DNA from: Candidatus Latescibacterota bacterium
Lineage (GTDB): Bacteria > Latescibacterota > UBA2968 > UBA8231
Length of the DNA stretch: 64,000 nt
Assembly (NCBI GenBank): GCA_965242865.1
Contig: CBDETK010000013.1
Coordinates: 4,352,001 to 4,416,000 of the forward strand
Reading direction: 5' to 3'
How positions within the stretch are numbered: position 1 is the first letter of the stretch; the number at the start of each line of letters is the position of its first letter. The notes under the pieces are model-generated. The model saw nothing but the letters and a program-made list of their open reading frames with translations, was not told the origin of the DNA and did not search any database. Positions 5,835 through 64,000 of this stretch are shown here, one piece after another. A program made the translations under genes and the position numbers.

Positions 5835-5849
5835 TTTTTCGTCAGAGAC

Positions 5850-8493: not shown

Positions 8494-8541
8494 AATCTTT
8501 ACGTTAAAAAAGCCCTTACGCAACCCTCACGCAAGGGGCAA

Positions 8542-46149: not shown

Positions 46150-46440
46150 ACGTACCTTGGGTTGAGAGCAATTTAGACTGTAGTGCGTTCCGCCGACCAT
46201 TGTTTTCCCTTGCGCTGGTGATGGGGTGTAGCAATCCTAAATCATTCAGTATGGAGTCAGCCTGCTTGGTTGGTAAATCAGCGGAACCATTGCCGACAAC
46301 ATCCTCGAGCAAGGCATAAGGGCCATGAACCTAGAAGCGTGTCAAGGCCAGGGCGCGGCCCCAACCAATCTCTTGGCGTTTGGTTTCCAAAAGGGCGAAC
46401 AAAAATTCACGAGGCCCAGAAGTCGCTGCTAACTACAAGC

Positions 46441-47427
46441 TCAACTGTCCCTCGGCACGGCCATCATTCGCTCCAACGCCCGCCGCGCCCCCGCAATCAC
46501 TTCGTCGTCTAGCTCGATTTCGTAGCGCTCGTAAAGCAGGGAAAAGTACACGTCTTGCAGGTCGGTGATCTTCATGTACGGGCAGTGTAGCCGGCAGCCA
46601 ATGCAGCCGTCAGCCGCTACGAACTCTTGGTGGGGGAAGCGCTGCCGGAGCTGGTGCAACATGCCGTTTTCCGTGGCGATGATGAAGCTCTTGGCCGCGG
46701 GATACTTTTCTACGGCCTTGAGCATCCCCGTGGTCGAGCACACTTCGTGCGCTATTTCGACCACGTCCTCGCGGCATTCTGGGTGCGCGATGATGACGGC
46801 CTCGGGATAGTCCGTGCGGGTGCGCTCGACGCTGGCGGCGCGCAGCACGTCGTGCGTTGGGCAAGCGCCGTCGTACACGACGATTTCTTTTTCTGGCACC
46901 TGCTCGGCCACCCAGCGGCCCAAGTTGCGATCGGGCGTAAAGAGGATTTTGTCGCTAGCGAGGCTGCGCACCACTGAGACGGCGTTGGCCGAGGTGCAGC
47001 AGATGTCGGACTCGGCCTTCACCTCGGCCGTGGAGTTGACGTACGTCACCACCGCGTGATCGGGATAGTCGGCTTTCCAATCGTCGAGGCTTTCGGGGGT
47101 GATGGAGTCGGCCAGCGAACAGCCCGCGCCCAAATGGGGCAAGAACACCTGCTTGTCCGGGCTGAGGATTTTGGCCGACTCGGCCATGAAATGCACGCCG
47201 CAAAAGACGATGCGCTCGGCATCCGCGTTGGCCGCTTCTACGGACAGCCCGAGCGAATCGCCCGTGAAGTCGGCCAAGTCTTGGATCGGCGGAATCTGGT
47301 AGTTGTGCGCGAGGATGACCGCGTTTTGCTCGCGGCGCAAGCGGTCGATCTGGGCGATGAGCTCCTCGGCCGGCAGGTCGCTGTAGTACTGCCCGGCGGC
47401 TGGGGCGAGCGTCTGTGAGTAGGTCAT
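46441..47427 (-). CDS. nadA: Quinolinate synthase
   Basis: LAHNYQ, GDSL, FCGVHFMAE, YVNS, CTSANA, AHPEC, CPYMK. Confidence 0.96.
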   Translation of the reverse strand: MTYSQTLAPAAGQYYSDLPAEELIAQIDRLRREQNAVILAHNYQIPPIQDLADFTGDSLGLSVEAANADAERIVFCGVHFMAESAKILSPDKQVFLPHLGAGCSLADSITPESLDDWKADYPDHAVVTYVNSTAEVKAESDICCTSANAVSVVRSLASDKILFTPDRNLGRWVAEQVPEKEIVVYDGACPTHDVLRAASVERTRTDYPEAVIIAHPECREDVVEIAHEVCSTTGMLKAVEKYPAAKSFIIATENGMLHQLRQRFPHQEFVAADGCIGCRLHCPYMKITDLQDVYFSLLYERYEIELDDEVIAGARRALERMMAVPRDS

Positions 47428-47633
47428 GGCTTGACTTGCGCTCCTTCGTCGGGGGGGATGGTCTCGGTGCCGTTGGGAAAAACGCGCCAAAACTCCTTGC
47501 GAATGAGGCCGGCGATCATGGCGCTTTTGCTGCTGCCGTGATAGCGGGCAATCGCGTCGAGCATCTCGTGGTCCCGGTCGGGGGCCGAAAAGGTTCGCAC
47601 CTTGGCCCGGCGGCTTTGGTCTTTGGTTGGCAT
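47424..47633 (-). CDS. Small ribbon-helix-helix DNA-binding protein
   Basis: Beta-strand VRTFSA, helix DHEMLDAIARYHG, turn SSKSAMIAGLIR; TGA overlaps nadA ATG. Confidence 0.72.
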   Translation of the reverse strand: MPTKDQSRRAKVRTFSAPDRDHEMLDAIARYHGSSKSAMIAGLIRKEFWRVFPNGTETIPPDEGAQVKP

Positions 47634-47639
47634 GAAATT

Positions 47640-47705
47640 ATTTATATTTTATATAAATTTTAATCAATATATATGTAATCTAACGAATCGCCGCCCGCCC
47701 GTCAA
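47640..47705 (-). promoter_or_regulatory. Sigma70 promoter and palindromic operator of RHH-nadA
   Basis: TTGACG(47705-47700)-N17-TAGATT(47682-47677); inverted repeat ATTTATAT-N3-ATATAAAT at 47640-47658. Confidence 0.7.
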
Positions 47706-47760
47706 TAAAATGTACCCATTTTTTAACGAAATTTTCGCAAGGGAAGGATGGGACTCGGCT

Positions 47761-48987
47761 CTAGAGCTGGCTAATCCGCGCCATGGCCTCTTCGATGCGG
47801 TCGCGGTGATTGAAGGCCGACAGGCGCAAGTACCCCTCGCCAGCCGCGCCAAAACCCGCCCCCGGCGTGCCGACGATGTGGGCCTTGTCGAGCAAGGAGT
47901 CGAAATAGGCCCAGCTGTCCTGCCCGTCGGGCGTGGCCACCCACAAATAGGGAGCGTGCTCGCCCCCATGCACGGTAAGCCCCGCCGCGCCCAACCGCTG
48001 GCGCATGATCGCGGCGTTTTCCATGTAGAACGCCACGCGCTCGGCAATGCCCTGCTGCCCGGCCGGCGAGTACGCGGCGGCCGCCCCGCGCTGCACTGGG
48101 TACGCCACGCCGTTGAACTTGGTCGAGTGACGCCGCGCCCACAGCCGATGCAGGTCTAATTCCTCGCCCGAACCCGCCCGGCCCATGAGTTCCTTTGGCA
48201 CCACAGTGTACCCACAGCGCAGGCCGGTAAAGCCGGCATTCTTGGAAAAACTGCGAAACTCAATGGCGACCTCTCGACCGCCTTCGACCTCGTAGATAGA
48301 GTGCGGGAGCGACGGATCCGTGATGTAGCTCTCGTAGGCCGCGTCAAACAGAATGACCGCCTGTTCCCGCCGAGCGTATTCGATCCAGCGGGCCAAGGCG
48401 TCGCGGGTCATGGCCGCGCCCGTGGGATTGTTGGGCGAGCACAAGTAAATCAGATCGACGTGCTCTGTGGGCAAGTCCGGGATGAAGCCGTTGGCGGCCG
48501 TACACGGCATGTAAATCAAACCGGCGTACGAGCCGTGCGCGTCGGCCGGGCCGGTGCGCCCCGCCATGACATTGGAATCGCAGTACACGGGATAGACCGG
48601 ATCGGTCAACGCAACGACGCAATCACTGGCGAAAATTTCCTGCACATTGCCCGAGTCGCACTTGGACCCGTCGGAGACAAAAATCTCGTCGCAGTGAACC
48701 GATACGCCGCGGGCGTCAAAGTCGTGCTCGGCAATGGCGGCGCGCAAAAATTCTTGGCCTTGGTCCGGCGGATAGCCCTGTAAGGTGTCGTCGTGGGCCA
48801 TTTCCTCGACGGCCTCTTTCATCGCATCGACGATCGGGCGCGGGATGCCCTTGACTACATCGCCGATCCCCAGGCGAATCACATCGGCCTGCGGGTGCGC
48901 GGCCGCAAACGCATCGACCCGGCGGGCGATTTCTGGAAAGAGGTAACCGGCTTTGAGCTTGAGGTAGTGGTCGTTGATATGCGCCAT
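47761..48987 (-). CDS. dapL: LL-diaminopimelate aminotransferase
   Basis: [48 protein letters not shown]. Confidence 0.95.
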
Positions 48988-49055
48988 GGCATTGCTTTCT
49001 TTGTTTGAAGGAATTACAGGATTGACGAGGATAAGAAGGATAAGGAATCCAAACC

Positions 49056-51962
49056 ATGAACGGCAACACGACTGAACCCACCCTCAATACCCATCTCGCC
49101 CAACTCTTGCGGCGCAAGGGCCTTGAAGCAGAAAGCGAGCAACGAGTGCGCGACGCCTCGGGCAGATACCATCAGGTCGATGTCCTCATAGAATTGGACG
49201 CCGACGCCATCGCCTTAGAAGCCGAGTTCGCACCGGCGCGTTCGGTGCGCGATGATGCGAGCAAACGCCTCCAACGAAGCTCGCTATACTGGCGCGGCCT
49301 GCCGGTCACCAGCGCGTTCACTGTGATTTACCCAGAATCCATGCGGCGCATCCCCGAAAGCGACGCGGCCAATGCGCTCGCCAATACCCACGATCTCGCG
49401 TTCGCCCAAGGCACTGGTGCCGATGGCGTCATCCATTGGCGGCCAGCCCAGACGGGCAGCGTCCGCGACTTGGCTGAGACGCTGCACAATTTCTGGGTCC
49501 ACACCAGCCAAGCCGTGAACATTCAAGACATGGTAGATATGGCTTCGCAGGCCATTGCCACGGCCGCCGAAACACTGGCGCGGGCACCGAGCCTGCGGCA
49601 AATCGAGAAAGACAGTGACCCCTCGGCCACCTGTGCCCTGATTTGGCTCAACGCGCTCCTCTTTCAAGAAATTCTCGCGAAAGACTTGCTGCCCGAGGCA
49701 CTCCCAGCACCCCACACTGGCCGCCGCATCCCCCGGCCGCAAACCCATGAGGGATCGGTCGATTTACTGCAACAATGGGACTTGATTCTCTCCATCAACT
49801 GGTATCCGATCTTTGACGTGGCCCGCAAAACACTCGCAGAAGTCCCGTCGCCGTTGGATGTGCAGGCGCTGGGCATTCTCAAGCCGTGCGCTAAGGCCAT
49901 GGCTGAAAACCAAGCCATCCGCCGCCACGATGTTATGGGGCGGATATTTCATCGCTTGTTGGAGAGCCGAAAATACTTGGCGACCAACTATACCACCATA
50001 CCAGCGGCTGTTCTATTGGCCGGCCTCGCTTTTGACGACGATTCTCCATTGTGGGGTGGGGTGAAATGGGATGACGCTGAGCGCTTGGGAAAATTTTTGC
50101 GGATCGTCGATCCGGCTTGCGGTAGCGGTACGCTGCTGATGGCCGCGACCCAAGAGATACTCAAGCGATTGCGGCGAACACAACAGGAGTTGGACGGATC
50201 GTTGAAGGCCGTGCTTGAAAACGCTCTCATCGGCTTTGATGTCGTCCCCGGCGCAGTGCATCTGACCGCTACGACGCTTTCCATGGCTGAAACCCGCCAA
50301 GTATTAAAAGGCATCCCCATCTATCGCATGCCGCACGACGTGAACAACTGCATCGCTCGGCTAGGTAGTTTGGATTTCCTCCGCAAGGCCCCGAACTACA
50401 CAAACGCCCGCTCCGAGAGCTTATTCCCCGATCCAGAACAAGAAGCGGTTCGCGTCACTGGGACCGGAGAGCAGTTGCACGATTCCGAAATGTCATACGA
50501 GTGCGATCTCATCATTTCCAATCCGCCGTACACCCGTGCGGGTGGTCCCGGAAGCAGCGACAACACTAGTTGGAATCCGCTGTTTGGGTCTGTGTTGTCG
50601 AGCAAGGACCAAGAACGCATGAATAAGGCACTACGCAAAACGTTAGATGGCACTCCGGCGAGTTTGTACGCCGGTCTTGGCTCCGCGTTTGTGACGCTAG
50701 CGGATGAGCACTTAAAGATCGGCGGGCGGCTCGCTTTTGTTTTGCCCGCTACCGTCTTGACCGGCAGCCGCTGGTCGCCCATCCGCGAGTTGCTGCTCGA
50801 CCGCTACGATATTGAGTGGGTAATCGTCAGCCACGACGACCGCAACCGGACGGCCCGTGCTAGCCTACCCGGCCGCAGTTATGTCGCCTTCTCGGAATCG
50901 ACTCGCATCGCCGAGACGTTGATCGTCGCCACGCGCCGCAATGATTTAGAAAAGGCCAACGGGTGGACGCGATTTGTCAACCTTCGCCGCATCCCGGATG
51001 AACCCATTGCGGCTATAGGACTTGTACGCGCCCTGCTCACGGATCGCACGGACAACGATCTTCAAGAAGATGTCGAATGTTCGGTGATCGACCTTGCTGG
51101 CGTTGAGTGGGGAGAAATCATCGCCGTGCGTCAGCAAATGTTAGATGCTGGCTCATGGGCACACACGACCTTTATTCAAAGCCAACTTGCGACAACTACC
51201 TTGGATTTCCTACACTCGCAAAAGCTCGGATCGGGTCAGATTCCTCTAACCACCTTGGAAACTATCTGCGACTTAGGTCCTTACCACATGCAGATCAAGA
51301 ATCCAACACACGGTCTATTCGACATCGTTGAAACGGATGATCCAACGAGCATGGGCGAACCGGCCGTGTGGCATCATTCAGAAAAAAAGATGACAACATT
51401 AAAAGCGGCTGCGAATGCAAAGTTGCGACGGAAGAGGGGAAAAAGTCGTGCTGAACAAGACAAAATGCTGGAGCAAGCAAGTCATTTGCAGATCGCGTCA
51501 GAGCTGAGACATGCCCCGCAGAGAGTGGCAGCTATCTATACGGAAGAGCCGATGCTCGGCGTTAGCTCATGGATCAGCTTAAAGATGAAGAATCCACGCG
51601 ATGGTGCAGAAGAGGTGCTATGCCTGTGGCTCAACAGCACCCTCGGTTTATTGCTGCGAATCGTTCACGCGAACCGGCCCTATCTCGGCAGAAGCAGGCT
51701 ACCGCACGAGTTAGGGCGCACGTTGCAGGTTATAGACGCGAATCGTCTGACCGACCAACAGTTACAGATAGGAAAGCAGATTTTCGCTGATTTAGCCGCC
51801 AGTCCGCTCGCTGGTTTCGCCAAGCTAACTTCCGACCCTGTTCGCCGCGAGCTAGACCAGCGAATAATGGCAGACCTGCTAGCGCTTCCCGACGCGGCAA
51901 CCACGGTCGAGCAATTGGCAAAAATGCTGGCGCATGAACCACTACTGACGACTCGCCATTAG
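49056..51962 (+). CDS. Type IIG-like restriction-modification enzyme (nuclease + amino-methyltransferase + TRD in one chain)
   Basis: N-terminal VDVLI...LEAEF nuclease-like motif; motif [12 protein letters not shown]; motif IV NPPY; lower GC than flanks. Confidence 0.8.
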
Positions 51963-52012
51963 AGCAGGTTTAAGTACGCGACACTTGCTTTAAGCAGTTC
52001 CCGTTGCGTCCG

Positions 52013-52064
52013 GGATCGAGGGCGTCCCGCCCGCCCTTGACGAGGGCAAGATGCCCTCGATTCC
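52013..52064. repeat. REP-like palindrome
   Basis: GGATCGAGGGC...CGAGGGCA-AGA-TGCCCTCG-ATTCC; related GGATCGAGGGCG also near 807. Confidence 0.5.
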
Positions 52065-52142
52065 GATACTTGGGAAGCAGGGGCTGGTGTCGCGTAGTAA
52101 AGTCAACCACAAAACCCGCATTCAAGCGGAGGAGAAAAGCTC

Positions 52143-53099
52143 GTGGACCTAAGTTTTATGACCAGCGCCGGCGGCGCCAACCATTGGAGCCTCGACGAAT
52201 GCGCCTGTTGGGCGCGAGCGCACGATTTCGACTGCGTACGCCTGAACGACTCCGGTGCGCTCGATTCGGATCACATTCTAGTGGTCGGCCCGGATGCGGT
52301 GTTGGCGACCCTGCGCCAGCACGGCCTGTATCTCGCCGCCCTCACCGCGCACCACAACCTGCTCGACGACGACCGCGCCCAAGCCCGCGCCGCCCAAGCC
52401 AAGCTGCTCAAGGCGATTGAGTCGGCCCGCGCCCTCGGCTGCCCAGTCGTGGTCACCAGCAGCGGCGCACCCGTGCGCAACGGCCAGTTCTACGGCATGT
52501 TCTCGGCCGAGCCGGGCAACCCCAGCGACCGGTCCGACGAATTAGTGGGCCGCTTCCAAGCCATGTTTGAACCCGTGGTGCAAGCGGCCGAAGCCAGCGG
52601 CGTCCGGCTCGCCCTCGACGTGGCCGTGCGCATGGGCCAAATTGGCTGCAACCCGGAGATGTGGGAAAGAATTCTCAACGCCGTGCCGTCGGATCACCTC
52701 GGCCTGTCCTGCGATCCTTCGCACTGGCTGTGGATGCACATTTTGCCGGTTGAGGACGTCATCCGCGACTTTGCCGGCCATTGGTACTACGCCGATGTCA
52801 AGGACTGCGAGATTAGCCCGCGGATGCTCTATCGCCAGGGCATCATTGGCAACTGGTGGTGGCAATACCGCGTCCCCGGCCGCGGCCAACTCAACTGGAG
52901 CACGATCATCGGCGCGCTGTGGGAATCCGGCTACGACTACGTGTTGTGCGTTGAAAACGAGGACCGCGGCTTTCCCGGGCTAGCGGGCTTTGCCTTTGGC
53001 GGCCGTCACTTGCGCGGCTTGCTGCCGCCCAAGGAAGCGAACTTTAAGCGGCAAGGGCCCCCTTGGAAGACCAGCGGATGGGAGCGCAAGGCCGAGTGA
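52143..53099 (+). CDS. Sugar-phosphate isomerase/epimerase (xylose-isomerase-like TIM barrel)
   Basis: DPSH, VKD, RVPGRGQLNW, YDYVLCVENED. Confidence 0.85.
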   Translation: MDLSFMTSAGGANHWSLDECACWARAHDFDCVRLNDSGALDSDHILVVGPDAVLATLRQHGLYLAALTAHHNLLDDDRAQARAAQAKLLKAIESARALGCPVVVTSSGAPVRNGQFYGMFSAEPGNPSDRSDELVGRFQAMFEPVVQAAEASGVRLALDVAVRMGQIGCNPEMWERILNAVPSDHLGLSCDPSHWLWMHILPVEDVIRDFAGHWYYADVKDCEISPRMLYRQGIIGNWWWQYRVPGRGQLNWSTIIGALWESGYDYVLCVENEDRGFPGLAGFAFGGRHLRGLLPPKEANFKRQGPPWKTSGWERKAE

Positions 53100-53159
53100 A
53101 GGTTGCCGTTGGGACCGTTTGCCCTATTTTGCCACCCTGCAACCAGCCACCGAGGAGCC

Positions 53160-54833
53160 ATGAGCACGGACAACAACCGCGACTTTATCCGCGAAGCCAT
53201 TGACGCCGACCTCAAAAGCGGCCGCTACGGCCGGGTCGTCACCCGCTTTCCACCGGAGCCGAACGCGTACCTGCACATCGGCAGCGCCAAGGCCATCTCG
53301 ATCAACTTCGGCATTGCCGCAGACTACGGCGGCCAGTGCAACCTCCGCTACGACGACACCAACCCCACGCGCGAAGAGCAAGAATACGTGGACTCCATGC
53401 AGGAGGACATTCGCTGGCTCGGCTACGACTGGGGGCCTCAGCCGTACTACGCTTCCGATTACTTCGGCCAGCTCTACGACTGGGCCGTCGTGCTCATCAA
53501 AAAGGGCTTGGCGTACGTGGACGACCAGACTGCGGACGCGATCCGGGAACACCGCGGCACCCTCACCAAGCCGGGCAAAAACAGCCCGTACCGCGACCGC
53601 TCCATCGAGGAAAATCTCCACCTTTTCGAGCAGATGAAAGCCGGCGCGTTCCCCGATGGCAGCCGCGTGTTGCGCGCCAAAATCGACATGGCCTCGCCCA
53701 ACATCAACCTGCGCGACCCGGTCATGTACCGCATCATGCACACCCCCCATCACCGCACCGGCGACGCTTGGTGCATCTATCCGCTCTACGACTGGGCCCA
53801 CGGCCAGAGCGACTCCATTGAGGGCGTTACGCACTCGTTGTGTTCGGACGAATTCATCAACAATCGCCCCCTGTACGATTGGTTCATCCAGCAGCTCGAC
53901 ATCTTTCCCTCGCGCCAAATCGAATTCGCCCGCGGCAACATCACGTACACCGTGTTGTCCAAGCGCTACCTCCGGCAGCTCATCGAGCAAAAGCTAGTGT
54001 CGGGCTGGGACGATCCGCGGCTCTCTACCTTGCGCGGTCTGCGCCGCTTGGGCTGCCCGCCCGAAGCCATTCGCCGCTTCTGGGCCGAATCGGGCGTCGC
54101 CCGCCGCGGCAACAACATCGACATCGCGCTCCTCGAATACTGCATCCGCGACCAGCTCAACAAGACCGCGCCCCGGCGCATGGCCGTGCTCAATCCGCTC
54201 AAGGTCGTCCTCGAAAACTACCCAGCGGACCAAAGCGAAATGCTAACGGCCATCAACAACCCAGAGGACGCAAGCGCCGGCACCCGGTCCATCCCCTTTT
54301 CGCGCCACCTTTACATCGAGCGCGAGGACTTTATGGAAGACCCGCCGCGCAAGTTCTTTCGCCTCGCCCCGGGCCGCGAAATCCGCCTGCGCTACGCCTA
54401 TTTCATCACCTGTACCGAGGTGGTCAAAGACGACCGCGGCGAGGTCGTCGAGCTGCGCTGCACGTACGATCCGGCCACCCGCGGCGGCAACGCCCCCGAT
54501 GGCCGCAAGGTCAAAGCCACCTTGCACTGGGTCTCGGCCCCCCACGCGGTCCCCGCCGAGGTGCGGCTCTACGACCGGCTCTTCAAGGTCGAAAACCCGC
54601 TCAAAGCCCCGCCCGGGGGCACTTGGCTGGACAACCTCAACCCAGACTCGCTCAAAGTCCTCAACCCCTGCTATCTAGAGCCGTCCCTCGTCGATATGGC
54701 CCCGGGGGACTCCTGCCAATTTGAGCGGCTCGGCTACTTCTGCGCCGACTGTGCGGACCACGCCCCGGCCGCGCCCGTCTTCAATCGCACCGTCACCTTG
54801 CGCGACACGTGGGCGCGGCTGCAGAAGCGCTAG
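53160..54833 (+). CDS. glnS: Glutamine--tRNA ligase
   Basis: [42 protein letters not shown]; RBS GAGGAG. Confidence 0.93.
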
Positions 54834-54849
54834 GCCAGCCCGGCCGCGC

Positions 54850-55620
54850 ATGCGGGTTTCGCGCATCTTACCGGCCTTACTGCTGGCGGCCTCCGTTGCC
54901 GCCGACGAGGTCCTCGTGCCGGCCGGTCCCTTCACCATGGGCATCGATCACCCGCGCGCCACCGACGAAAAGCCCAGCCGCCCAGTCTATCTCAGCGCCT
55001 TTTCCATCGACCGCTACGAGGTCACCAACGCCCGCTTCGCCGCCTTTGTCGCGGCCACCGGCTACCAGACAGACGCGGAAAAACGCGGCGCTGAAAGGGC
55101 CGATGGCATTAGCTGGCGTCAGCCCCATGGCCCCGGGTCGGCGGCCGCCCCAAGCCATCCCGTCGTCTATGTCAGTTGGCACGATGCCGAAGCGTATTGC
55201 GCGTGGCGCGGCGGCCGGCTGCCCACCGAAGCCGAGTGGGAAAAAAGCGCGCGCGGCCGCGATGGCCGGCTCTGGCCTTGGGGTGCGGCGTTTGCCGCTG
55301 ACCGCGCCAATCTTTGGGGCCCGGAAGACGGCTATGCCGAGTTGGCCCCGGTCGGCTCTTTTCCCGCTGGGGCCAGCCCGTACGGTGCCTTCGACATGGC
55401 CGGTAATGTCTGGGAGTGGTGCGCCGACTGGTACGACGCCACCTATTACGCCACCGCGCCGACCCAAGACCCGCAAGGGCCAGCGACTGGCCGCTTCAAG
55501 GTCTTGCGCGGCGGCTCGTGGATCAACCGAGGCCCCACCCTGCGCAGCATCAACCGCTTCGAGCTCCTGCCGGTAGAGCGCAGTGCCTACATCGGCTTCC
55601 GCTGCGCCCGCTCGCCATGA
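54850..55620 (+). CDS. FGE-sulfatase (SUMF1-fold) domain exported protein
   Basis: RYEVTNARF, HPVVYVSW, RLPTEAEWEK, DMAGNVWEW, RGGSW, GFRCAR; no catalytic Cys pair. Confidence 0.9.
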   Translation: MRVSRILPALLLAASVAADEVLVPAGPFTMGIDHPRATDEKPSRPVYLSAFSIDRYEVTNARFAAFVAATGYQTDAEKRGAERADGISWRQPHGPGSAAAPSHPVVYVSWHDAEAYCAWRGGRLPTEAEWEKSARGRDGRLWPWGAAFAADRANLWGPEDGYAELAPVGSFPAGASPYGAFDMAGNVWEWCADWYDATYYATAPTQDPQGPATGRFKVLRGGSWINRGPTLRSINRFELLPVERSAYIGFRCARSP

Positions 55621-57257
55621 CCCGGCTTATCGCGCTGGGCGTCGCGCTGTTAGCGGCCTGCGACGCGCCCGATCCCGTGCGCTTTGCCGAAGTGGGCACG
55701 GCCGCTGGCCTCCGCTTTGAGCTGCGTTCTGGCGGGCAGGTCAAAAACTACATCGTAGAGGCCAAGGGCGGCGGCGGCGCGTTTCTCGACTACGACGGCG
55801 ACGGTTGGCTCGACATCTACTTGGTCAACGGCTCGCGCCTAAAAGGCTATTCCGACTCAGCCCCGACCAACGCCCTCTACCGCAACCTAGGCGACGGCAC
55901 CTTTGAGGACCGCACCCGCTCGGCCGGGGTCGGCGATGCGGGTTGGGGCATGGGCTGCGCGGTGGCCGACTACGACCAAGACGGCGACCTCGACCTGTAC
56001 GTGACCAATTACGGCCCCAACATCCTGTACCGGAACGAGGGCCAAGGCCGATTCCGCGACGTCGGCCAAACCGCCGGCGTCGATCGGGCGGGCTGGAGCA
56101 CGGGGGCTAGCTTTGGCGACTACGATCTGGACGGCGACCTCGACCTCTACGTAGCCCAGTACTTGCACTTTGCGCCCGAGCGCGTTCCGCCCCGGGGCGG
56201 CATGTGGAAGGGGGTTTTAGTCTTTGCGGGACCATCCGGTCTTCCCGGGGCGCAGGATGTCCTGTACCGGAACGAGGGCCAAGGCCGGTTCCGCGACGTC
56301 ACCCGCCAAGCAGGGGTCAGTCAACGGACGCCGACCTACGGCCTAAGTGCCCTTTTTTGCGACTACGACCAAGACGGCGACCCAGACCTCTACGTGGCCA
56401 ATGACTCAGCCCCCAATTTTCTCTATCGGAACGAGGGAAACGGCCAATTCCGCGACGTCGGTGTGGAGGCGGGTGCTGCCCTCAGTGCCGAGGGCGGGGC
56501 GCAAGCCGGCATGGGCATCGCTTACGGGGACTGCGATGGCGATGGCGACGGCGATTTTCTGGTGACCCACTTTGAGGACGACTACAACACCCTGTACCGC
56601 AATCGCAGCGATGGGACCTTTGCCGTGGCCAGTGCTGAGGTCGGCCTCGCCGCGCCAAGCCTGCCCCACTTGGCCTTTGGCGCGTGCTTTTTCGATTACG
56701 ACAACGACCAAGACCAAGACCTCTTCGTCGCCAACGGCCATGTCTATCCCCAAATGCGACACCTGAACCCAGACGGGTACGCCGAGCCGAACCAGCTTTT
56801 TGCCAATCAGGGCCAAGCCGGGGCCTATCGCTTCTCAGAAGTTGCCGCCGGGGACCTAAGCCGCCCGGCCGTCAGCCGCGGGGTCGCCAAGGGGGACTAC
56901 GACAACGATGGGGATGTAGATGTTTTGGTCTGCAACCTCGACGGACCGCCGCACCTGCTGCGCAACGACGGCGGCAACCAGCGCAACTATCTGAGCCTGC
57001 GGTTGGTTGGCACCGCGTCCAATCGCGATGGCATTGGGGCGCGGGTCTCGGTCGTCAGTGGCGGGGTCGAGCAGATCGCCGAGCGGGTCAGTGGCGGCAG
57101 CTTTCTCTCGCACAGCGACGGGCGCGTCCATTTCGGTTTGGGCGCGAACACCGTGGCCGAGCGCGTTGAAATCCACTGGCCTTCGGGCCGCGGCCAGCGC
57201 TTAGAGGACGTGCCCGCGAATCAGTTCTTGGTGGTAGAAGAACCGGGGCCGCCCTGA
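55617..57257 (+). CDS. CRTAC1/ASPIC-UnbV FG-GAP repeat lipoprotein
   Basis: Repeated DYDxDGDLDLYV, LYRNEG; SNRDGIGARV, HFGLG, WPSG. Confidence 0.92.
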   Translation: MTRLIALGVALLAACDAPDPVRFAEVGTAAGLRFELRSGGQVKNYIVEAKGGGGAFLDYDGDGWLDIYLVNGSRLKGYSDSAPTNALYRNLGDGTFEDRTRSAGVGDAGWGMGCAVADYDQDGDLDLYVTNYGPNILYRNEGQGRFRDVGQTAGVDRAGWSTGASFGDYDLDGDLDLYVAQYLHFAPERVPPRGGMWKGVLVFAGPSGLPGAQDVLYRNEGQGRFRDVTRQAGVSQRTPTYGLSALFCDYDQDGDPDLYVANDSAPNFLYRNEGNGQFRDVGVEAGAALSAEGGAQAGMGIAYGDCDGDGDGDFLVTHFEDDYNTLYRNRSDGTFAVASAEVGLAAPSLPHLAFGACFFDYDNDQDQDLFVANGHVYPQMRHLNPDGYAEPNQLFANQGQAGAYRFSEVAAGDLSRPAVSRGVAKGDYDNDGDVDVLVCNLDGPPHLLRNDGGNQRNYLSLRLVGTASNRDGIGARVSVVSGGVEQIAERVSGGSFLSHSDGRVHFGLGANTVAERVEIHWPSGRGQRLEDVPANQFLVVEEPGPP

Positions 57258-57452
57258 GCTTACGGATGCCAATGCAAAAGTCTGGGGAGGTTGGACAGCC
57301 ATATCCTCGGACTCTCTGACCGATTCTCTCTTCGCCTCAACGATTGATTGGGTATAGGTCAGACATAGCAATAACTTCGCGTCCTCAACTTCACCCCGCC
57401 GCATCTCTTTTGTCAGCAGAGTTGCCGAAAAAAGGTAAAACGCGACGGCCTC

Positions 57453-58727
57453 CTACCAATAGCGCAGCGCGTCCGCAAAAATCCCCGCCAGTGCCTCGGC
57501 GTTAGCGGGGCGCGGCGAGAGCTTGGTCACCCGGTGCTGCGGCAGCGTGCCCTTGACCAGTGCCGGGATGTGCTGGGGGCCGTAGCCGAGCGCGCTGAGG
57601 CCGTTGGGCGCGTCGAGTCGGCGCATCAGCGCGACGATGCGGTCGGCCAAAATCGCGCCCGCGTCCTCGTCGTCAGCGCCGCGGCAATCGGCTCCCAAGA
57701 CCGCTGCGGCCCGCAGATGCCGCTGGGGGCTGGCCGGCGCGGTAAAGCGAAAAACGGCCGGCGCGTTGACGATCACGGCAAACCCGTGCGGCACCAGCGG
57801 GTAATCAACCGCGTATCCAGCCGGCACATAGCTTTCCACCATGCCAGCCACCGGATAGGACATGCCGTGCGGCAAGTGGACGCCGGCGTTGCCAAAACCA
57901 ATGCCGGCGAGGGCCGCGGCCAAGCTCATCGCGCTGCGAGCCTCGTCGTCGCTGGGGTCGGCCACGGCGCGGGGCAGAAATCGCGCCACCAACCGCAAAG
58001 CCTCCAACGCCCACAAGTCGCTGATGGGATTGGAGCCTTGGTAGGCCGGTCGCAGTTGGGGCCGGTCGGGGCGGGGACGTTGGTCAAACGGCAGGGCCGT
58101 GTACGACTCCAAGGCATGTGAGAGCACGTCGAGGCCGGTGGCCGCGGCCACCGGCCTCGACGTGGAGCGCGTGTTGTCTGGATCGACGATCCCCAGCGTT
58201 GGGCGCATATAGCGGTGGGCCATGCCGGTCTTGGCCTTCATCGCGAGGAAGTCGAAAATCGCCACGCCCGTCGTCTCGCTGCCGGTGCCAGCCGTGGTGG
58301 GAACGGCGATGAGCGGCTTGAGCGGGCCGGGCACGGGCACCCCCCGGCCAATTGGCGCGTTGACGTACGCGAGGAAGTCGGCCGGATACGTGGTGTACAC
58401 GTTGGCCGCTTTGGCCGTGTCCATCACCGACCCGCCGCCGACTGCGACAAACCCGTCAAACCCTTGTTGGGCGTACGCAATCGCGGCCTTGAACGAGGCG
58501 TCGGTCGGCTCGACGCGCACTTGGTCGAACAGCGCGTACTCGACGCCCGCCTCTGCAATGGCCGCCAAGGCTGTCTGCACCGGCGCTTGCGCACGCAAGT
58601 TTGGATCGGTCAAAACCAAGACCCGCTTCAGCCCCCAGTCCTTTAGGTCCATGCCGATCTCCTGAGTGGTGCCCGGGCCAAAGCGGATGTTGGAGGTGGC
58701 GATTTCGTAGGCCGTGTCACAAAGCAT
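57453..58727 (-). CDS. Hydroxyacid-oxoacid transhydrogenase (Fe-ADH family)
   Basis: GGGSVMDTAK, PTTAGTGSETTG, RPAYQGSNPISD, FGNAGVHLPHGMSYP, HRVTKLSPR. Confidence 0.9.
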   Translation of the reverse strand: MLCDTAYEIATSNIRFGPGTTQEIGMDLKDWGLKRVLVLTDPNLRAQAPVQTALAAIAEAGVEYALFDQVRVEPTDASFKAAIAYAQQGFDGFVAVGGGSVMDTAKAANVYTTYPADFLAYVNAPIGRGVPVPGPLKPLIAVPTTAGTGSETTGVAIFDFLAMKAKTGMAHRYMRPTLGIVDPDNTRSTSRPVAAATGLDVLSHALESYTALPFDQRPRPDRPQLRPAYQGSNPISDLWALEALRLVARFLPRAVADPSDDEARSAMSLAAALAGIGFGNAGVHLPHGMSYPVAGMVESYVPAGYAVDYPLVPHGFAVIVNAPAVFRFTAPASPQRHLRAAAVLGADCRGADDEDAGAILADRIVALMRRLDAPNGLSALGYGPQHIPALVKGTLPQHRVTKLSPRPANAEALAGIFADALRYW

Positions 58728-58798
58728 GGCGTCGTCCTTTCGGGCGGGGAATATAGGGTTGACGCGAAGGGGGAGGCAAGGCTAGTTAAAAGAGCTTT
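58693..58798. repeat. Left copy of 106-bp direct repeat (transhydrogenase 5' end + divergent promoter)
   Basis: Matches 62876-62981 with 7 mismatches; 78-bp core 58721-58798 has 2. Confidence 0.95.
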
Positions 58799-58861
58799 CA
58801 TGGCCTCTCAGCACCTGCGATTACTAACGCCGCCCGTCGCCAGACTATTCCCGCTTTTCGC

Positions 58862-60652
58862 GAAAAGGGGGCACTCGCGGCCAACTTCCGGGGCTATGAC
58901 ATTTCGCCCGATATGGTGCGGCTGTCGCTGGTGAATCTGTATCTGCACGGCTTTGTCGAGCCGCATATTGCCGAATACGATACCTTGACCAGCGAGGAGC
59001 GTTGGAACGAGTATGCCGACGTGATTTTGGCCAATCCGCCGTTTATGTCGCCCAAGGGGGGCATTCGCCCGCACAGCCGCTTTTCGGTCCAGTCCAAGCG
59101 CAGCGAAGTGCTGTTTGTCGATTACATTGCCGAGCATCTGACGCCTGCGGGTCGGGCGGGGATCATCGTGCCGGAGGGGATTATCTTTCAGAGCCAGCGT
59201 GCCCACAAGCAGTTGCGAAAGATGCTGGTGGAGAATTATCTGGTCGCGGTGGTCTCGCTGCCGGCGGGGGTGTTTCAGCCGTATTCCGGGGTTAAGACTT
59301 CCATCCTGATTCTGGACCGATCGCTTGCGACAAAGGCCGATCACATCGCCTTTTTCAAGGTAGAAAACGATGGGTTTGATTTGGGGGCGCAGCGGCGAGA
59401 GATTGTGGAGAATGATTTACCGCAGGTGCGGGCGGAGCTTGGCGAATACTTGCGCCGTTTGCACACAGGAGAATCTGTGGCAGACTTCGCGCCGACGTTG
59501 GGACTGGTCGGTGAAAAAGAAAGAGTTGCGGAGGGTGGGGAATACAATCTGAGTGGGGAAAGGTATCGGGAGAGTGGAGCAAGACAGTCTAATTGGCCGG
59601 TGGTCTCGTTAGGAGAGCAAGAGATTTTCAGCATTGAAAGTGGTGGCACACCCAAGTCAGGAATCGAGGAATACTGGGATGGTGGCATACCTTGGTTCAC
59701 GCTGGTTGATTTGCCAGCAGGCGATTTCATCACAGAAATTACCGACACGCAGAGGACGATAAGCGAGAAGGGCTTGCGGAACTCGGCTGCAAAGATGCTT
59801 CCTGCCAACTCCGTTGTTGTTTCATCAAGAGCGACTATTGGTCGAATCGGTATCAATCGCATCCCTCTCGCCACCAACCAAGGCTTCAAAAGTGTCGTCA
59901 TCAAAGATACAAATAGAGCCATTCCTGAATACGTTGCATTGGCATTGACGAAATTGGTGCCGACAATGCAAGCCCAAGCCAGCGGGTCAACGTACAAAGA
60001 AATTATCAAGTCAAGGTTCAGTGAACTAAGCATCCCTCTGCCGCCGCTGGAAGTACAGCGAGAAATCGTCGCGGAGATTGAGGGCTATCGGCGGGTGATA
60101 GAGGGGGCACGGGCGGTGGTGGAGAACTGGCAGCCGCAGATTGCGATTGATCTGGGGTGGCCGATGGTGGCGCTGGGAGAAATCATCTCTTTGGAATACG
60201 GCAAATCACTCAAAGCCGAAAACCGAATTGAAGGACCATATCCGGTATATGGATCAAATGGAATCGTCGGTTATCACAATGAATGTTTGATTGAGGGACC
60301 AGCCATCATTGTAGGACGAAAAGGTTCTGCGGGTGCCGTCAATTTTTGCGAGACGCCGTGTTATCCAATAGATACGACATTCTTTGTCCGTATCAGAGAG
60401 CGACAGCGGCTTGATGTCCTATTCTGCTACTATCAGATGCTTGAGCTTGAGTTGGACAAAGTAAATGTTCAGTCTGGTGTTCCGGGTCTAAATCGGAACG
60501 ATGCGTACCGCAAAACGATAGCTGTACCGCCCCTTAAAACTCAGCAAGCCATCGTCGCCGAGATAGAGGCGGAACAGGCATTGGTGGATGGCAACCGAGC
60601 GTTGATCGAGCGACGCGATGTGGTGGGACGGGTGTGGGGGGAGGGGGAATAG
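58862..60652 (+). pseudogene. 5'-truncated Type I HsdM-HsdS fusion
   Basis: Begins mid-MTase (GYDISPDMVRL), has NPPF but no SAM-binding motif I; two TRDs (SGGTP..TNQGF..LPPLEVQREIV; YPVYGSNG..GRKGS..VPPLKTQQAIV); no hsdR. Confidence 0.8.
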
Positions 60653-60685
60653 ACTAAAAGCTGATTGGGAAGTTGATCAGTTCGG

Positions 60686-61657
60686 TTAATGGTGTTTTGG
60701 CAGGTGTTTTTGAATCTCTTGGAAAATCTCACGCATACCACGCGGCAGATCTTGGCATATCAACGGCTCGGATTTCTCCAGCAACCGACATATTCTGTAT
60801 CGGTCACATAGGATACAGTAGTTGGTACGTGACGGATCTTCCCGCCATTGTGCGTGGATGATACGTGGAAAATGAGGAATCAATAAAAAATTTGTATGAT
60901 CTGTATTTAACCGCATGACCCCCGATAAAGCATGGCGAGATTGGGCTTCATGTTTTTTGGTCCACCATTCTTTTGCCACTGTGCATTGAGCGAAAGCAAA
61001 GAATGGATACTCCAATTTGTCCTCAAAAGGACAAATGGCAATCAAATCAATACCAAATTCGAGTTGCGTGTTGGGCAGTTTCTCTATTTCCTCTTGATAC
61101 TCTTGGGCGTTTAATTTTCGAGCCAAGGCCGGAATGGCCTCGCGTGCGGACCACCCAAGATTTTTTCTATCCTCGCTGTTTTGACTAAACAGAAAAACCT
61201 CTGCCCAATCGGGAAACAACGCCCGCATCGCCTCTTTGCAGAGATTTTCAAACTCTATCCTCAGATTATGCCGCAAAGATGGAATCTGATTGTGACATGA
61301 ACAGGCCAGCAAGAACAGATACGACAAATAGTGTTTCTTGGACGTTTGAGGTGCAAACAGTACTTCGCCACCGTCTTGTCTGAAAGGGTAAGTGTCCCCC
61401 AACCATAATGCGCGTTTTTTGATAAGATCCATCGCCTCTTCAAACTTTGCATTAAGATCATCAACTTGCTCGCCTTGTAAAAAATTATCCTCTTCCTCTG
61501 AAAAAATCTCTCTTTGAACTGCGTCAAATTCTGCGCGTGTGAAACGACCACCATGGTCGTTGTCAGGGAATGCGACAGCCAACTCAATGCAGTCGGTAAA
61601 ATCAACGACATCTTTGACTATTTTTTGACTCAGTTCAAAATCAATCATTGTGATCAA
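60686..61657 (-). CDS. Hypothetical protein, putative PD-(D/E)xK-like nuclease
   Basis: YPF...YLFLL, FENLC, GIDLI...PFED...AQC...W..K pattern; overlaps upstream ParB gene. Confidence 0.6.
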   Translation of the reverse strand: MITMIDFELSQKIVKDVVDFTDCIELAVAFPDNDHGGRFTRAEFDAVQREIFSEEEDNFLQGEQVDDLNAKFEEAMDLIKKRALWLGDTYPFRQDGGEVLFAPQTSKKHYLSYLFLLACSCHNQIPSLRHNLRIEFENLCKEAMRALFPDWAEVFLFSQNSEDRKNLGWSAREAIPALARKLNAQEYQEEIEKLPNTQLEFGIDLIAICPFEDKLEYPFFAFAQCTVAKEWWTKKHEAQSRHALSGVMRLNTDHTNFLLIPHFPRIIHAQWREDPSRTNYCILCDRYRICRLLEKSEPLICQDLPRGMREIFQEIQKHLPKHH

Positions 61658-62720
61658 CCTTTAAGTCTAAACGGTCAAGTGTGACATCAAGCACTTTCAC
61701 TACTTCTTGGACTTTCTTTATAGCCTCTTGGTCATCGGGCGTCACAGAATGCAGGTTTGAGTTTGCTTGCTTGATATGTTCTATGGTTAATATTATATCT
61801 TGTAAAAACTCCTTCCTGTCATCTACCGTATCACTATAAGCACTATCCAATGACACGCCTTGCCGAAACTTTTCTAGTGTGTTTGGGTTTTCTATTACCT
61901 CACTCAATTTGGGGATGTTGCGAGACTCGCCAAGACGTGTGGAACCCTGACTATCTTTTTCAAACATCCATTTGGTAAGTTCTTGAAGAGGTTCTTTCTT
62001 TAAGGATTTTGGATTGGCAATGGGGTATGTTGCACTACCGTCCTCTCCCCTGACGCCGACAAATGACGCGATTACCACATTCCCAATCGCAGTGTAGAAC
62101 ACGCCGAACTGAAAACTTTCTTCGTCTAAGTCACGAATGTCAAAAAAGTCGCGTTCCTTAATGGCTTCGTACGCTGCCAAAGCATCCAGATTTCGTCGGA
62201 CAGAATTGCTTTTACTCCCAATTTCACGAGCAATTTCCTTACAGCGGTCTTCTGGTTTACCTTGTGCTTGATCGAATAACAATTTCAAGTATCGCGCCTT
62301 TGCCAAAGGATCCCAGCGTTGGCTTCCAGAAATATGGCGAAAGCCCAGATATTGCAGGGTATCATCCCTTGAGTTGACTATATATGCTGGGATTCTAGTT
62401 GGCTTACTTTCAGCTTCTTCTGAGACTTTTGTGATGCTGCGGCGAGCACCCACCAATTCCGGATCTTGCAACAGTTTCAATGCTGCCAGTCTGCGGTTTC
62501 CCTCTAAGACTGTGTATTTGTCGTCTTCAGCAGGAGTTACGACGATGGCTTCGCCCGGGAAAAACCCGTTCTCTCCAATCGAAATCATCAAGTCCTCAAT
62601 GCCGGTTTTTGCCGCCAAATACTTGATAATGTCGCTTTCTTTAGTACCTACCGTAGTCGGCAGCCGCGGGTTTTGCTCGTCAAACTCGATCTGGTCAATG
62701 TTGAGTGTCTTAAAGTTCAT
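61641..62720 (-). CDS. ParB/sulfiredoxin-like N-terminal domain protein
   Basis: DEQNPR, SIGENGF, VLEGNRRLAALK, RHISGSQRWDPLAKARY. Confidence 0.85.
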   Translation of the reverse strand: MNFKTLNIDQIEFDEQNPRLPTTVGTKESDIIKYLAAKTGIEDLMISIGENGFFPGEAIVVTPAEDDKYTVLEGNRRLAALKLLQDPELVGARRSITKVSEEAESKPTRIPAYIVNSRDDTLQYLGFRHISGSQRWDPLAKARYLKLLFDQAQGKPEDRCKEIAREIGSKSNSVRRNLDALAAYEAIKERDFFDIRDLDEESFQFGVFYTAIGNVVIASFVGVRGEDGSATYPIANPKSLKKEPLQELTKWMFEKDSQGSTRLGESRNIPKLSEVIENPNTLEKFRQGVSLDSAYSDTVDDRKEFLQDIILTIEHIKQANSNLHSVTPDDQEAIKKVQEVVKVLDVTLDRLDLKVDHND

Positions 62721-62871
62721 GAGAATACCTCTCTTGGTAGGGCTTCAAAAATTTGTCGGAAGATCATCGGCGGCACGGCATTGCCAATGACCTTGTATTT
62801 ACTCATAGACCTCTTTGGCATAGGCCAGAATATCGTTTGCCATCAGAATCTCGCAGCCTGAATCAATCAGC
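62717..62871 (-). pseudogene. Scar of a C5-cytosine methyltransferase (N- and C-terminal fragments joined out of frame)
   Basis: LIDSGCEILMANDILAYAKEVYE (motif II-like) then, in another frame, SKYKVIGNAVPPMIFRQIFEALP (motif X); TGA overlaps ParB ATG. Confidence 0.8.
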
Positions 62872-62875
62872 CTTA

Positions 62876-62981
62876 GAGGCAGCGATTTCGTAAGCCGCGT
62901 CAAAAAGCATGGCGTCGTCCTTTCAGGCGGGGAATATAGGGTTGACGCGAAGGGGGAAGCAAGGCTAGTTAAAAGAGCTTT
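62876..62981. repeat. Right copy of 106-bp direct repeat
   Basis: Duplicate of 58693-58798; minus strand encodes MLFDAAYEIAAS vs MLCDTAYEIATS. Confidence 0.95.
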
Positions 62982-63015
62982 GAGAGGAGAGATCGTCTTG
63001 ATTGAACGAGCAAAT

Positions 63016-63423
63016 ATGACGCCCGAGGATGTGGAGGAAGGGCGGCGGTTGGCCTTGGATTTTGGCAAGCTGCGGCGGGCGGTAGCCGGGGGCGAAGGCT
63101 TGGTGCCGGTGGCGGTGCAGGACGCCGACAGCGGCGAAGTGCTGCTTGTGGCATACGCCAATGAAGCGGCCCTCAACTATGCGCGGCGGGCGGGCGTGGC
63201 CGCGTTTTGGAGCACGTCGCGCAACGAGCTGTGGGTGAAGGGCGCGACCTCGGGCAATGGGCTCAAACTGGTCGAAATCCGCGTCAACTGCGAGCAAAAC
63301 TCGCTGCTGTATCGCGTCCGCCCCCAAGCGGGCGGGGCCTGCCACACCCGGGACGCGGCCGGTCGGGCGCGGTCCGGGTGTTACTACCGGCGGCTCGTGG
63401 GAGACGGGCTCGAACCCATTTGA
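63016..63423 (+). CDS. hisI: Phosphoribosyl-AMP cyclohydrolase
   Basis: GLVPVAVQD, FWSTSRNELWVKGATSGN, NCEQNSL, GACHT, CYYR. Confidence 0.92.
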   Translation: MTPEDVEEGRRLALDFGKLRRAVAGGEGLVPVAVQDADSGEVLLVAYANEAALNYARRAGVAAFWSTSRNELWVKGATSGNGLKLVEIRVNCEQNSLLYRVRPQAGGACHTRDAAGRARSGCYYRRLVGDGLEPI

Positions 63424-63451
63424 ATCGCAATTTCACCGGGAGGATTAGGCC

Positions 63452-63979
63452 ATGGCCAATGCCGTGATTGTCGTCGATATGCAGAACGGCTTTATGCGCT
63501 CAGATGGGACGCTCTACTGCGGAGACCATGCACGGGCGATCATCCCGCGCATCGCCGCACGGGTCGAGCGCGAAAAGGCCGCTGGGGCCGCGCTCTTTTT
63601 CACCCAAGACAGCCACACCGCCAACGACCGCGAGTTTGAGATGTTTCCGCCCCACTGCATTGAAGGCAGTGAGGAAGAGCGCATCATCGCCGAGCTGGCG
63701 CCGCTGGCCCGAGACGCGCAGATTGTCAAGAAGCGGCGCTACAGTGCCTTTTTTGAGACCGAGTTGGCCGCACAGTTGGCTGCGCTGGCCCCGGACAAGG
63801 TCGTGGTCATGGGCGATTGCACGGACATTTGCGTCCTGCACACCGTGGCCGGGCTGCGCAATCGCGACTATTCAGTTGAGGTCCCGGCCGATTGCGTCGC
63901 CAGCTTTGATCCCCAACAACACGAATGGGCCTTGGGGCACCTAGAAAAAATCCTCGGAGCCCAAGTGACGAACCGCTGA
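63452..63979 (+). CDS. pncA: Cysteine hydrolase, nicotinamidase/isochorismatase family
   Basis: VVDMQNGF, QDSH, PPHC, KRRYSAF, TDICV. Confidence 0.75.
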   Translation: MANAVIVVDMQNGFMRSDGTLYCGDHARAIIPRIAARVEREKAAGAALFFTQDSHTANDREFEMFPPHCIEGSEEERIIAELAPLARDAQIVKKRRYSAFFETELAAQLAALAPDKVVVMGDCTDICVLHTVAGLRNRDYSVEVPADCVASFDPQQHEWALGHLEKILGAQVTNR

Positions 63980-64000
63980 TGGCAGAACGCGATCGCTACG

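Follow-up and report, generated by a model that had tools for sequence, protein, structure and literature searches.

In the 64,000-nt window analyzed here (positions 4,352,001 to 4,416,000 of contig CBDETK010000013.1, assembly GCA_965242865.1, Candidatus Latescibacterota; genome G000 below), an islet of foreign genes at 58799–62872 separates an iron-type alcohol dehydrogenase (ADH) gene from hisI and is bounded by a direct repeat. According to the comparison with related genomes, this islet is likely the decayed remnant of a restriction–modification (RM)/defense block of ~5.6 kb, which entered the locus by an integrase-free insertion-duplication before G000 and its sister species G041 (= G048) diverged. 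The same locus of G041, designated L111, holds a fuller form of the islet. The event is ordinary in kind and well resolved; its new part is the sister-species record of a longer duplication and of its reciprocal erosion. The features of the locus in the window were as follows:

57453–58727, minus strand: iron-type ADH gene, 424 aa (Pfam Fe-ADH, 8e-43; ADH_Fe_C, 4.3e-33)
58690–58798, no strand: left repeat copy, comprising the ADH 5′ end, a ribosome site and the putative ADH–hisI divergent promoter region; ancestral at 6 of the 8 sites at which the copies differ
58750–58779, minus strand: leftward promoter-like element TTGCCT-N18-TATATT from the consensus scan, overlapping the rightward TTGACG at 58760–58765
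58799–58871, plus strand: 3′ piece of a Fic/DOC gene, 73 nt, the left terminal fragment of the islet, 96% identical to positions 5531349–5531421 of contig C13 of G000, inside the Fic gene of locus L104 (6570–7460)
58861–60652, plus strand: type I-like modification–specificity fusion gene (M.S), 5′-truncated, with the catalytic half of the N6-methylase and two specificity domains; first in-frame start ATG at 58913
60686–61648, minus strand: gene X, 320 aa, intact, of a conserved family (161 homologs, none with a Pfam domain)
61641–62720, minus strand: gene of a ParB-like protein, 359 aa, intact (PADLOC PDC-M38A, 2.9e-30; PD-Lambda-5_A, 1.1e-26)
62717–62872, minus strand: two remnants of a C5 cytosine methylase gene (Dcm), namely, a C-terminus ending ..YKVIGNAVPP.. 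and a short N-terminal piece
62873–62981, no strand: right repeat copy, comprising a decaying remnant of the ADH 5′ end (ADH′) and the promoter region that would now serve hisI; the leftward −35 is TTGCTT
62998–63423, plus strand: hisI (phosphoribosyl-AMP cyclohydrolase; Pfam PRA-CH, 1.6e-22), the sole copy kept in G000
63452–63979, plus strand: isochorismatase-family gene (Pfam Isochorismatase, 5.8e-40)

The direct repeats that a first-pass annotation of the window had placed at the islet ends were real: the copies were 109 nt each, with 101 of 109 positions identical, and a search of the 5,997,474-base assembly returned two matches only (E = 2.2e-40 for the second copy). The eight mismatches were located at 58692, 58697, 58698, 58710, 58715, 58720, 58742 and 58775, and the longest identical run was 32 nt. 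As had been described, the repeats contained the first 12 codons and the ribosome site of the left gene (38 nt, or 12 2/3 codons, of the ADH 5′ end and an AGGA-type site in each copy), as well as a leftward TTGC(C/T)T-N18-TATATT and a rightward TTGACG motif, the latter at 58760–58765 in the left copy and at 62943–62948 in the right one. The geometry was also as reported, each copy facing one host gene and one arm of the convergent cargo. The ADH′ remnant of the right copy was a 15-codon open reading frame (ORF), MLFDAAYEIAASKAD, on the minus strand (62910–62863). The guanine-plus-cytosine content was 0.62–0.72 in the flanks and 0.40–0.59 between the repeats.

DNA searches in 40 relatives were combined with local comparisons, and 18 genomes of the same genus were examined at the locus. 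In all 18, ADH (88–92% nucleotide identity) and hisI were adjacent and divergent. The search for an empty site, which the first-pass annotation had proposed as a check, yielded a plain single-copy spacer of 81–88 nt in 11 of these genomes and other small insertions in 7, whereas the duplication was found in none of them. In the more distant genus members G016 and G024, hisI was not seen beside ADH within the stretch fetched. DNA of the Dcm, ParB-like and X genes was present in only 2 of 31 genomes of the genus, namely, G000 and G041. The latter was found through an ADH search (locus L027, 95% amino-acid identity), and on three other segments of the window it was the closest of the 30 other genus genomes (91, 95 and 92% vs. 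at most 86, 92 and 88%).

The loci of G000 and G041 were compared by BLAST segments; a global MAFFT alignment was misaligned owing to rearranged duplicates. In L111, ADH and the repeat region occupied positions 2503–3857, hisI positions 3744–4342 and the islet positions 4391–9721. In the left part of the locus, ADH and the promoter region preceded a complete hisI, which was followed by the initial bases of the isochorismatase gene, a 28-nt filler and the terminal 137 nt of Fic; the intact M.S gene (811 aa, 4503–6938) started one base after the Fic stop codon. The opposite strand carried X, the ParB-like gene and an intact 341-aa Dcm (8829–9854, PF00145 2.4e-55), beyond which lay ~70 nt of AT-rich DNA, a fragment matching the DNA downstream of an NYN-domain gene, ADH codons 1–25 and a second promoter region. 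This second ADH′ and promoter copy (10016–10155) directly abutted the 3′ end of hisI, with the isochorismatase gene behind it (10156–10760). The earlier description of the cargo as promoterless was not borne out by this arrangement, in which M.S follows hisI and the 3′ piece of Fic, and Dcm has upstream AT-rich DNA of its own.

Direct repeats of 58, 39, 40, 66 and 59 nt occurred in the same order on both sides of the G041 islet. The 59-nt one, a copy of the hisI 3′ end and the isochorismatase start, was 98% identical between the two sides, and the first few isochorismatase bases form the right-hand limit of the ancestral duplicated segment. As judged from these repeats, the duplicated host segment was at least 0.63 kb long (L111 ~3707–4337) and included the ADH interior, the promoter, hisI and the first isochorismatase codons. 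Positions 9929–10019 of L111 matched the DNA that separates the NYN gene from a DUF3226 gene, together with the 3′ end of the latter (92% over 91 columns in G019, 83% in G001), and the last 49 nt of this fragment matched G041's own copy at 96%. The original duplication was probably ~2.5 kb long, extending from the DUF3226 3′ end through the NYN-domain gene and all of ADH.

Comparative analysis of the two loci showed that each species had lost different parts of the structure. The 533 nt missing from G000 at 58798/58799 comprised hisI copy 1 with the beginning of the isochorismatase gene, the 28-nt filler and 25 nt of Fic, and the ~320 nt missing at 62872/62873 comprised the 5′ end of Dcm and the DNA preceding it, together with the upstream host fragment and ~40 nt of ADH′. 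Both islet ends in the window are thus secondary deletion scars, and the first-pass proposal of the ~106-nt unit as the recombination substrate and islet boundary was discarded, as the G041 layout makes both junctions later deletions. Within the cargo of G000, M.S lacked 673 nt, deleted at an 8–11-nt microhomology, GA(A/G)AAGGG, with loss of the N-terminal domain and of the motif binding S-adenosylmethionine (AdoMet) and with a shift of the frame, and Dcm had a 733-nt internal deletion. The losses of G041 amounted to 415 nt in hisI copy 2, 14 nt in ADH′ and 235 nt in X, the last of these covering the invariant residues D201 to E234. The hisI gene of G000 would accordingly correspond to copy 2 of the ancestral duplication, and G041 keeps the copy left of the islet. 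The decay of the cargo was also reciprocal (60686–62720 vs. L111 7090–9854): in G000 the ParB-like gene and X were intact and both methylase genes were broken, whereas in G041 the methylase genes were intact and X was broken. Since complementary halves were kept (different hisI copies; methylases in one species and the nuclease-like gene in the other), the original kilobase-scale duplication can be reconstructed. The two species therefore provide a rare before-and-after view of an ageing integrase-free insertion.

According to the evaluation of synonymous divergence (dS) between G000 and G041, the values for host and islet genes matched: 0.23 for ADH, 0.24 for the isochorismatase gene and 0.25 for both hisI and the portion of M.S common to the two islets. 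The ratios of nonsynonymous to synonymous divergence (dN/dS) were 0.13, 0.10, 0.14 and 0.14, respectively. The second specificity domain was 93–98% identical between the two islets, other modules reaching at most 59% there. The Dcm piece at 62803–62872 was 99% identical between the islets, and the gene order was common to both. The matching dS values, the identity of the specificity domain and the restriction of the Dcm, ParB-like and X DNA to two of the 31 genomes together place the insertion before the species split, and it is therefore not a recent arrival.

Several observations weigh against this reconstruction or limit it. The segment of the ParB-like gene and X was only 79% identical between the islets, with a dS of 0.59 and dN/dS of 0.25 for the ParB-like gene and 0.41 and 0.29 for X, and both genes were mosaic with modules of other genomes, local identity peaks reaching 97–99%. 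The cargo has therefore been partly exchanged since the insertion, and vertical descent is strict for parts of it only. Furthermore, the repeat copies within each genome shared species-specific characters (CTAGTT and AAAGCAT in G000; TCTATT and AAATCAT in G041), so that, under a single ancestral duplication, the copies must since have undergone gene conversion with each other; no conversion would be needed to account for the shared characters if two independent events had taken place. The estimate of 2.5 kb holds if the upstream fragment and ADH′ once formed a continuous stretch in copy 2, and a joining of this fragment during the original event is just as conceivable. A genome retaining two intact hisI copies was not encountered. 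In addition, Logan contigs of four sequencing runs broke at the repeats and paralogs, and none of the listed pieces bridged the four junctions.

That gene conversion takes place in this system is shown by the islet M.S of G041, whose 5′ 1.95 kb was 97.4% identical to that genome's own paralog 16 kb away (L111 4366–6455 vs. L112 5799–8437), indicating a recent conversion within G041. The M.S of the G000 islet was only ~92% identical to any paralog.

A consensus scan of the region for sigma-70 promoters returned four promoter-like hits vs. 4.1 expected from shuffled sequence, i.e., not above chance, and the promoter calls therefore rest on position and conservation. Among 18 relatives, TTGAC was kept in all 18, TAGTTA in 17, AATATA in 14 and AGGCAA in 15, and the arrangement AATATA-N18-AGGCAA in 13. 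This conservation supports a real divergent promoter region, in which the element TTGCCT-N18-TATATT at 58779–58750 presumably drives ADH; it passed the scan in the left copy only, the right copy having TTGCTT. The derived state was found in the right copy at six of the eight repeat differences, seven of the eight lay on the ADH side of the hisI −35, and one derived difference of the right copy weakened the inward-facing −35. Such a pattern looks like decay of the inward promoter rather than its maintenance.

The following sequence of events is proposed. A block composed of the 3′ fragment of Fic and M.S in one direction, followed by X, the ParB-like gene and Dcm in the other, would have entered the ADH–hisI–isochorismatase locus before the species split, flanked from the start by two direct host copies of at least 0.63 kb and probably ~2.5 kb; in the 2.5-kb case, copy 2 would later have lost the NYN and ADH bodies. 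The redundant DNA would then have been whittled by microhomology-type deletions, differently in each lineage, so that G000 lost hisI copy 1 and G041 lost copy 2. As long direct repeats are unstable, the deletions shortening them may have stabilized the insert. The left copy would have to keep the ADH start and promoter, and the right copy the hisI–isochorismatase promoter, because the convergent islet cuts hisI and the isochorismatase gene off from the left copy. The residual repeat would thus be the bidirectional promoter region because both flanking genes still need that part, and the distribution of the repeat differences described above (seven of eight on the ADH side of the hisI −35, six derived on the right, inward −35 weakened) fits this explanation. 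Since the promoter upstream of Dcm is deleted in G000, the ParB-like gene and X would be either transcribed from the ADH′ promoter copy or silent. No RNA runs were listed among the runs holding the stretch.

The locus carries the footprint of an insertion-duplication, namely, a host segment, a foreign block and the host segment again, with the segment single-copy in relatives and no recombinase. For the origin step, a RecA-dependent single crossover of the Campbell type with a circle carrying the block and a piece of a relative's chromosome is favored, with roughly even chances of being correct, and a larger element whose edge was subsequently trimmed would be consistent with the truncated Fic. 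Campbell-type integration had already been suggested in the first-pass annotation; it stands as one of the two best origins, but not at the ~106-nt unit, as the duplication in G041 is at least 0.63 kb. Known insertion-duplications of this type include F-prime factors, specialized transducing phage genomes and suicide plasmids. They share with the present locus foreign DNA enclosed by direct copies of a host stretch present once in relatives, the absence of host sequence loss and of an own recombinase, and possible reversal by homologous recombination. The differences are that no circle or donor was seen here, that the kilobase-scale homology has been cut to 109 nt, and that the insertion is fixed in two species and decaying rather than mobile.

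An in-situ tandem duplication of ~0.63–2.5 kb, arising by RecA-independent illegitimate joining between sister chromosomes with capture of foreign DNA at the joint and without any circle, rivals the crossover at the origin step only, since its product would be identical; it is a possible origin of lower probability. It would account for the illegitimate character of both host/foreign junctions of G041 (28 nt of filler on the left; no shared sequence at the Dcm side), for the G041-lineage characters in the last 49 nt of the upstream fragment and for the smaller insert-plus-duplication events of the same lineage, with duplications of 56 and 19 nt. A precedent is given by spontaneous tandem duplication at 9-bp microhomology borders, which can activate horizontally transferred genes, as stated in PMC11111574. 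However, a duplication joint rarely captures as much as 5.6 kb of foreign DNA, and a search for Ku (PF02735) found none in the genome, which is 93.6% complete and in which end joining may still exist. The data do not separate the two origins, as the final structure is the same. The duplication and amplification view is reportedly that of Reams and Roth, in which a tandem duplication undergoes later remodelling deletions. Its likeness to the present case lies in a kilobase-scale direct duplication, a novel joint, stabilizing deletions that shorten the repeat and promoter copies beside foreign genes, whereas here the joint holds 5.6 kb of foreign DNA and the time scale is that of species, not of laboratory selection.

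The remaining explanations were weighed against the crossover and tandem-duplication origins. The repeats directly flank the insert with each copy facing one arm of the cargo, empty sites are single-copy and no integrase is present, as would be expected of a promoterless circular cassette that carried a ~106-nt host segment and recombined there recently by a single crossover, leaving the repeats as original junctions open to clean RecA excision. This version is nevertheless very improbable: the flanks in G041 are far longer, and genes are complete there where those abutting the repeats in G000 are truncated; the cargo has upstream DNA of its own in G041; the islet is as old as the species split; and the repeats are 7% diverged, with no identical run above the 32 nt noted above and with a weakened inward −35 in the right copy. 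Still smaller is the probability of a decayed site-specific integrative element resembling a cis-mobilizable element (CIME), with the repeats as attL and attR and a deleted integrase. Some integrative elements characteristically have direct repeats restoring a gene's 5′ end, and the islet lost DNA at both ends. In agreement with the first-pass annotation, however, no integrase family was found among the ORFs of the G000 islet (Pfam, PADLOC, NCBIfam) or of the G041 islet (Pfam only), no integrase or excisionase remnant was left in either, and no tRNA gene occurred within 45000–64000; moreover, the duplicated segment is of kilobase scale with a whole gene inside, and in L127, L128, L129 and L133 the module stands in other contexts without flanking direct repeats of 35 nt or more. 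The islet thus resembles genomic islands and CIMEs in its direct repeats with the 5′ end of a flanking gene, its higher AT content than the host and its variable locus, and differs from them in having no integrase, no att site common to other copies of the module and duplicated DNA that once held the whole hisI. Transposons and insertion sequences differ as well: no transposase family was found among the islet ORFs (Pfam, NCBIfam), no inverted repeat pairs the islet ends, and the duplication measures 109 nt in G000, that of G041 being at least 0.63 kb long.

Scarcely any credence was given to an assembly artefact in which co-occurring strains were merged into a chimera in the metagenome-assembled genome (MAG). 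In the same samples, the right end does exist in a fuller variant, seen as a loose end beyond 62872 in the Logan contigs of run X1 and as a joint from 62872 to 58655 in those of run X5, and the estimated contamination of the genome is 6.8%. The block lies inside a 5.6-Mb contig, though, and an independent assembly of a different species has the homologous islet at the same locus; the eight differences between the repeat copies mean that they are not a collapsed duplicate. The Logan contigs of runs X1 and X2 matched the cargo and both outer flanks without differences over the pieces listed, none of which crosses a junction. Neither the G041 filler junction nor the G000 left junction was found in exact-string scans of metagenome contigs. 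The runs holding the stretch included several labelled sponge metagenome.

A wider and rather doubtful proposal is that the lineage acquires cassettes without a recombinase, duplicating the target over a variable length (19 nt for a hairpin, 56 nt for a hicB–hicA pair, 0.6–2.5 kb for the present block) and thereby preserving the promoter or 5′ end of the neighboring gene, and that the surviving promoter copy drives the methylase-less ParB-like/nuclease pair. A shared mechanism behind the hicB–hicA, hairpin and islet events is possible.

In the M.S gene of G000, the match to Pfam N6_Mtase began at profile position 90 of 311 and that to PADLOC MTase_I at position 237 of 491, and Methylase_S was matched twice. 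Thus, the gene was without a complete N6_Mtase domain, the region of the AdoMet-binding motif (DPACGTAGFL in G041) being deleted and the two specificity domains being kept, whereas the M.S of G041 contained a complete N6_Mtase domain and two target-recognition domains. Like type I RM systems with a fused M.S, the gene combines an N6-methylase with two specificity domains, and fuller copies have HsdR upstream of it; the islet differs in being without HsdR and in the truncation of the G000 M.S. The Dcm remnants of G000 matched residues 304–341 (83%) and 45–69 (88%) of the intact 341-aa Dcm of G041, so the PF00145 domain was not full-length: residues ~45–69 and 304–341 remain, with stop codons between them. 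At least nine other C5-methylase-like ORFs were present in the G000 genome, at most 37% identical to the G041 Dcm.

The start of the ParB-like gene overlapped the Dcm stop, and its stop overlapped the start of X. The ParB-like protein was 72% identical in amino acids to its G041 ortholog and had no Pfam hit at E 0.01; its match to NCBIfam parB_part (2.1e-5) was below the cut-off of that model. It matched PDC-M38A of the PADLOC candidate system PDC-M38, and its N-terminal ~146 residues matched positions 1–160 of the 466-position PD-Lambda-5_A profile, which is a partial likeness to PD-lambda-5. PMC9519451 describes PD-lambda-5 as a compacted RM and abortive infection (Abi) system with a methyltransferase as the top domain hit. 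Among the matches listed, no PD-lambda-5 model was hit by X or by M.S. Gene X kept all 48 invariant columns of a 66-sequence alignment, its invariant residues including E197, D201, D210, Q221 and E234, with K231 nearly invariant. The AlphaFold model of X built on this alignment had a predicted local distance difference test (pLDDT) score of 88; the single-sequence model (pLDDT 36) was unusable. Its best fold matches were MspJI (Z 6.6), N.BspD6I (5.9), FokI (5.6) and NgoMIV (5.5), with a best Foldseek E-value of 2.8e-3, and the top 12 VIA matches were restriction or related nucleases, at Z of 4.8–6.6, below the level that would exclude a common arrangement. On the basis of this model, X is probably a PD-(D/E)XK-type nuclease.

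A search with the ParB-like protein alone revealed no related locus, and 19 loci (L127–L144, X at 6001–69xx in each) were obtained from the alignment of X relatives, in MAGs labelled Latescibacterota, Rhodothermales, Dehalococcoidia and Chloroflexota. In 17 of these loci, Dcm, the ParB-like gene and X were three overlapping genes kept as a unit. A convergent M.S stood beside the triad in five loci, with HsdR beyond it in four of the five, i.e., all but the G041 islet (L139). Consequently, the islet reads as an HsdR-less fragment of a larger composite RM locus, and the mosaic identity of the triad, with peaks of 97–99% between genomes, suggests frequent exchange. No published function was found in the literature for the triad. 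Being uncharacterized and exchanged among MAGs labelled as different phyla, the combination of Dcm, ParB-like and PD-(D/E)XK-like genes may merit a defense assay.

As for the repeat itself, the presence of a short duplicated promoter at the ends of an island does not necessarily mark the site of recombination, and such a promoter may be the part of a longer duplication that selection retained, which calls for caution in reading similar short-repeat islands in MAGs.

The Fic piece (58799–58871) and M.S had paralogs in resident HsdR–Fic–M.S loci of both genomes (L104, L112). A toxin–antitoxin gene pair, hicB-like (69 aa) and hicA (73 aa), was located between Fic and M.S in these loci, at L112 5935–6539 in G041 and at L104 7461–8062 in G000 (contig C13, ~5.53 Mb), and the initial 55 nt of M.S were present on both sides of the pair as a direct duplication of 56 nt (96% identical). 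Unlike in the resident loci with the hicB–hicA pair, the Fic/M.S junction of the islet copy was uninterrupted.

The ADH–hisI spacer appears to be a variable spot in the genus. In G019 (L012 2439–2852), G007 (L013) and G005 (L015), it contained a minus-strand ORF of 137 aa with tandem 33-nt repeats and a hydrophobic tail, belonging to no Pfam family. In G013, ~160 nt of other extra sequence was present, and heptamer repeats were observed in G004. A hairpin insert of ~30 nt was found in the spacers of G010 (L019 1945–2012) and G014 (L017 ~1864–1994); a 19-nt direct duplication of the spacer flanked it in G010, and the arrangement in G014 was alike by eye and was not called computationally.

Among the flanking host genes, the first 38 nt of ADH lay inside the left repeat, and the gene product reached no NCBIfam equivalog cut-off, the name transhydrogenase having been that of the first-pass annotation. 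The start codon of hisI was either TTG at 62998 or ATG at 63016, after GAGAGGAGAG. In G041 and G019, an NYN-domain gene (~200 aa) separated ADH from the gene upstream; it was absent from the window (57387–57440 vs. L111 1868–2494 and L115 1679–2263); the DUF3226 gene beside it in G019 was absent from both G000 and G041. The ADH of G041 seemed to be frameshifted near codon 385 (L111 ~2582–2700), its last ~55 residues matching another frame at 67% identity, and either a real lesion or an assembly error could apply. A 40-nt perfect palindrome was present within the ADH coding region of the window (58125–58164), parts of which (31 nt, 90–94% identical) were palindromic in five relatives.

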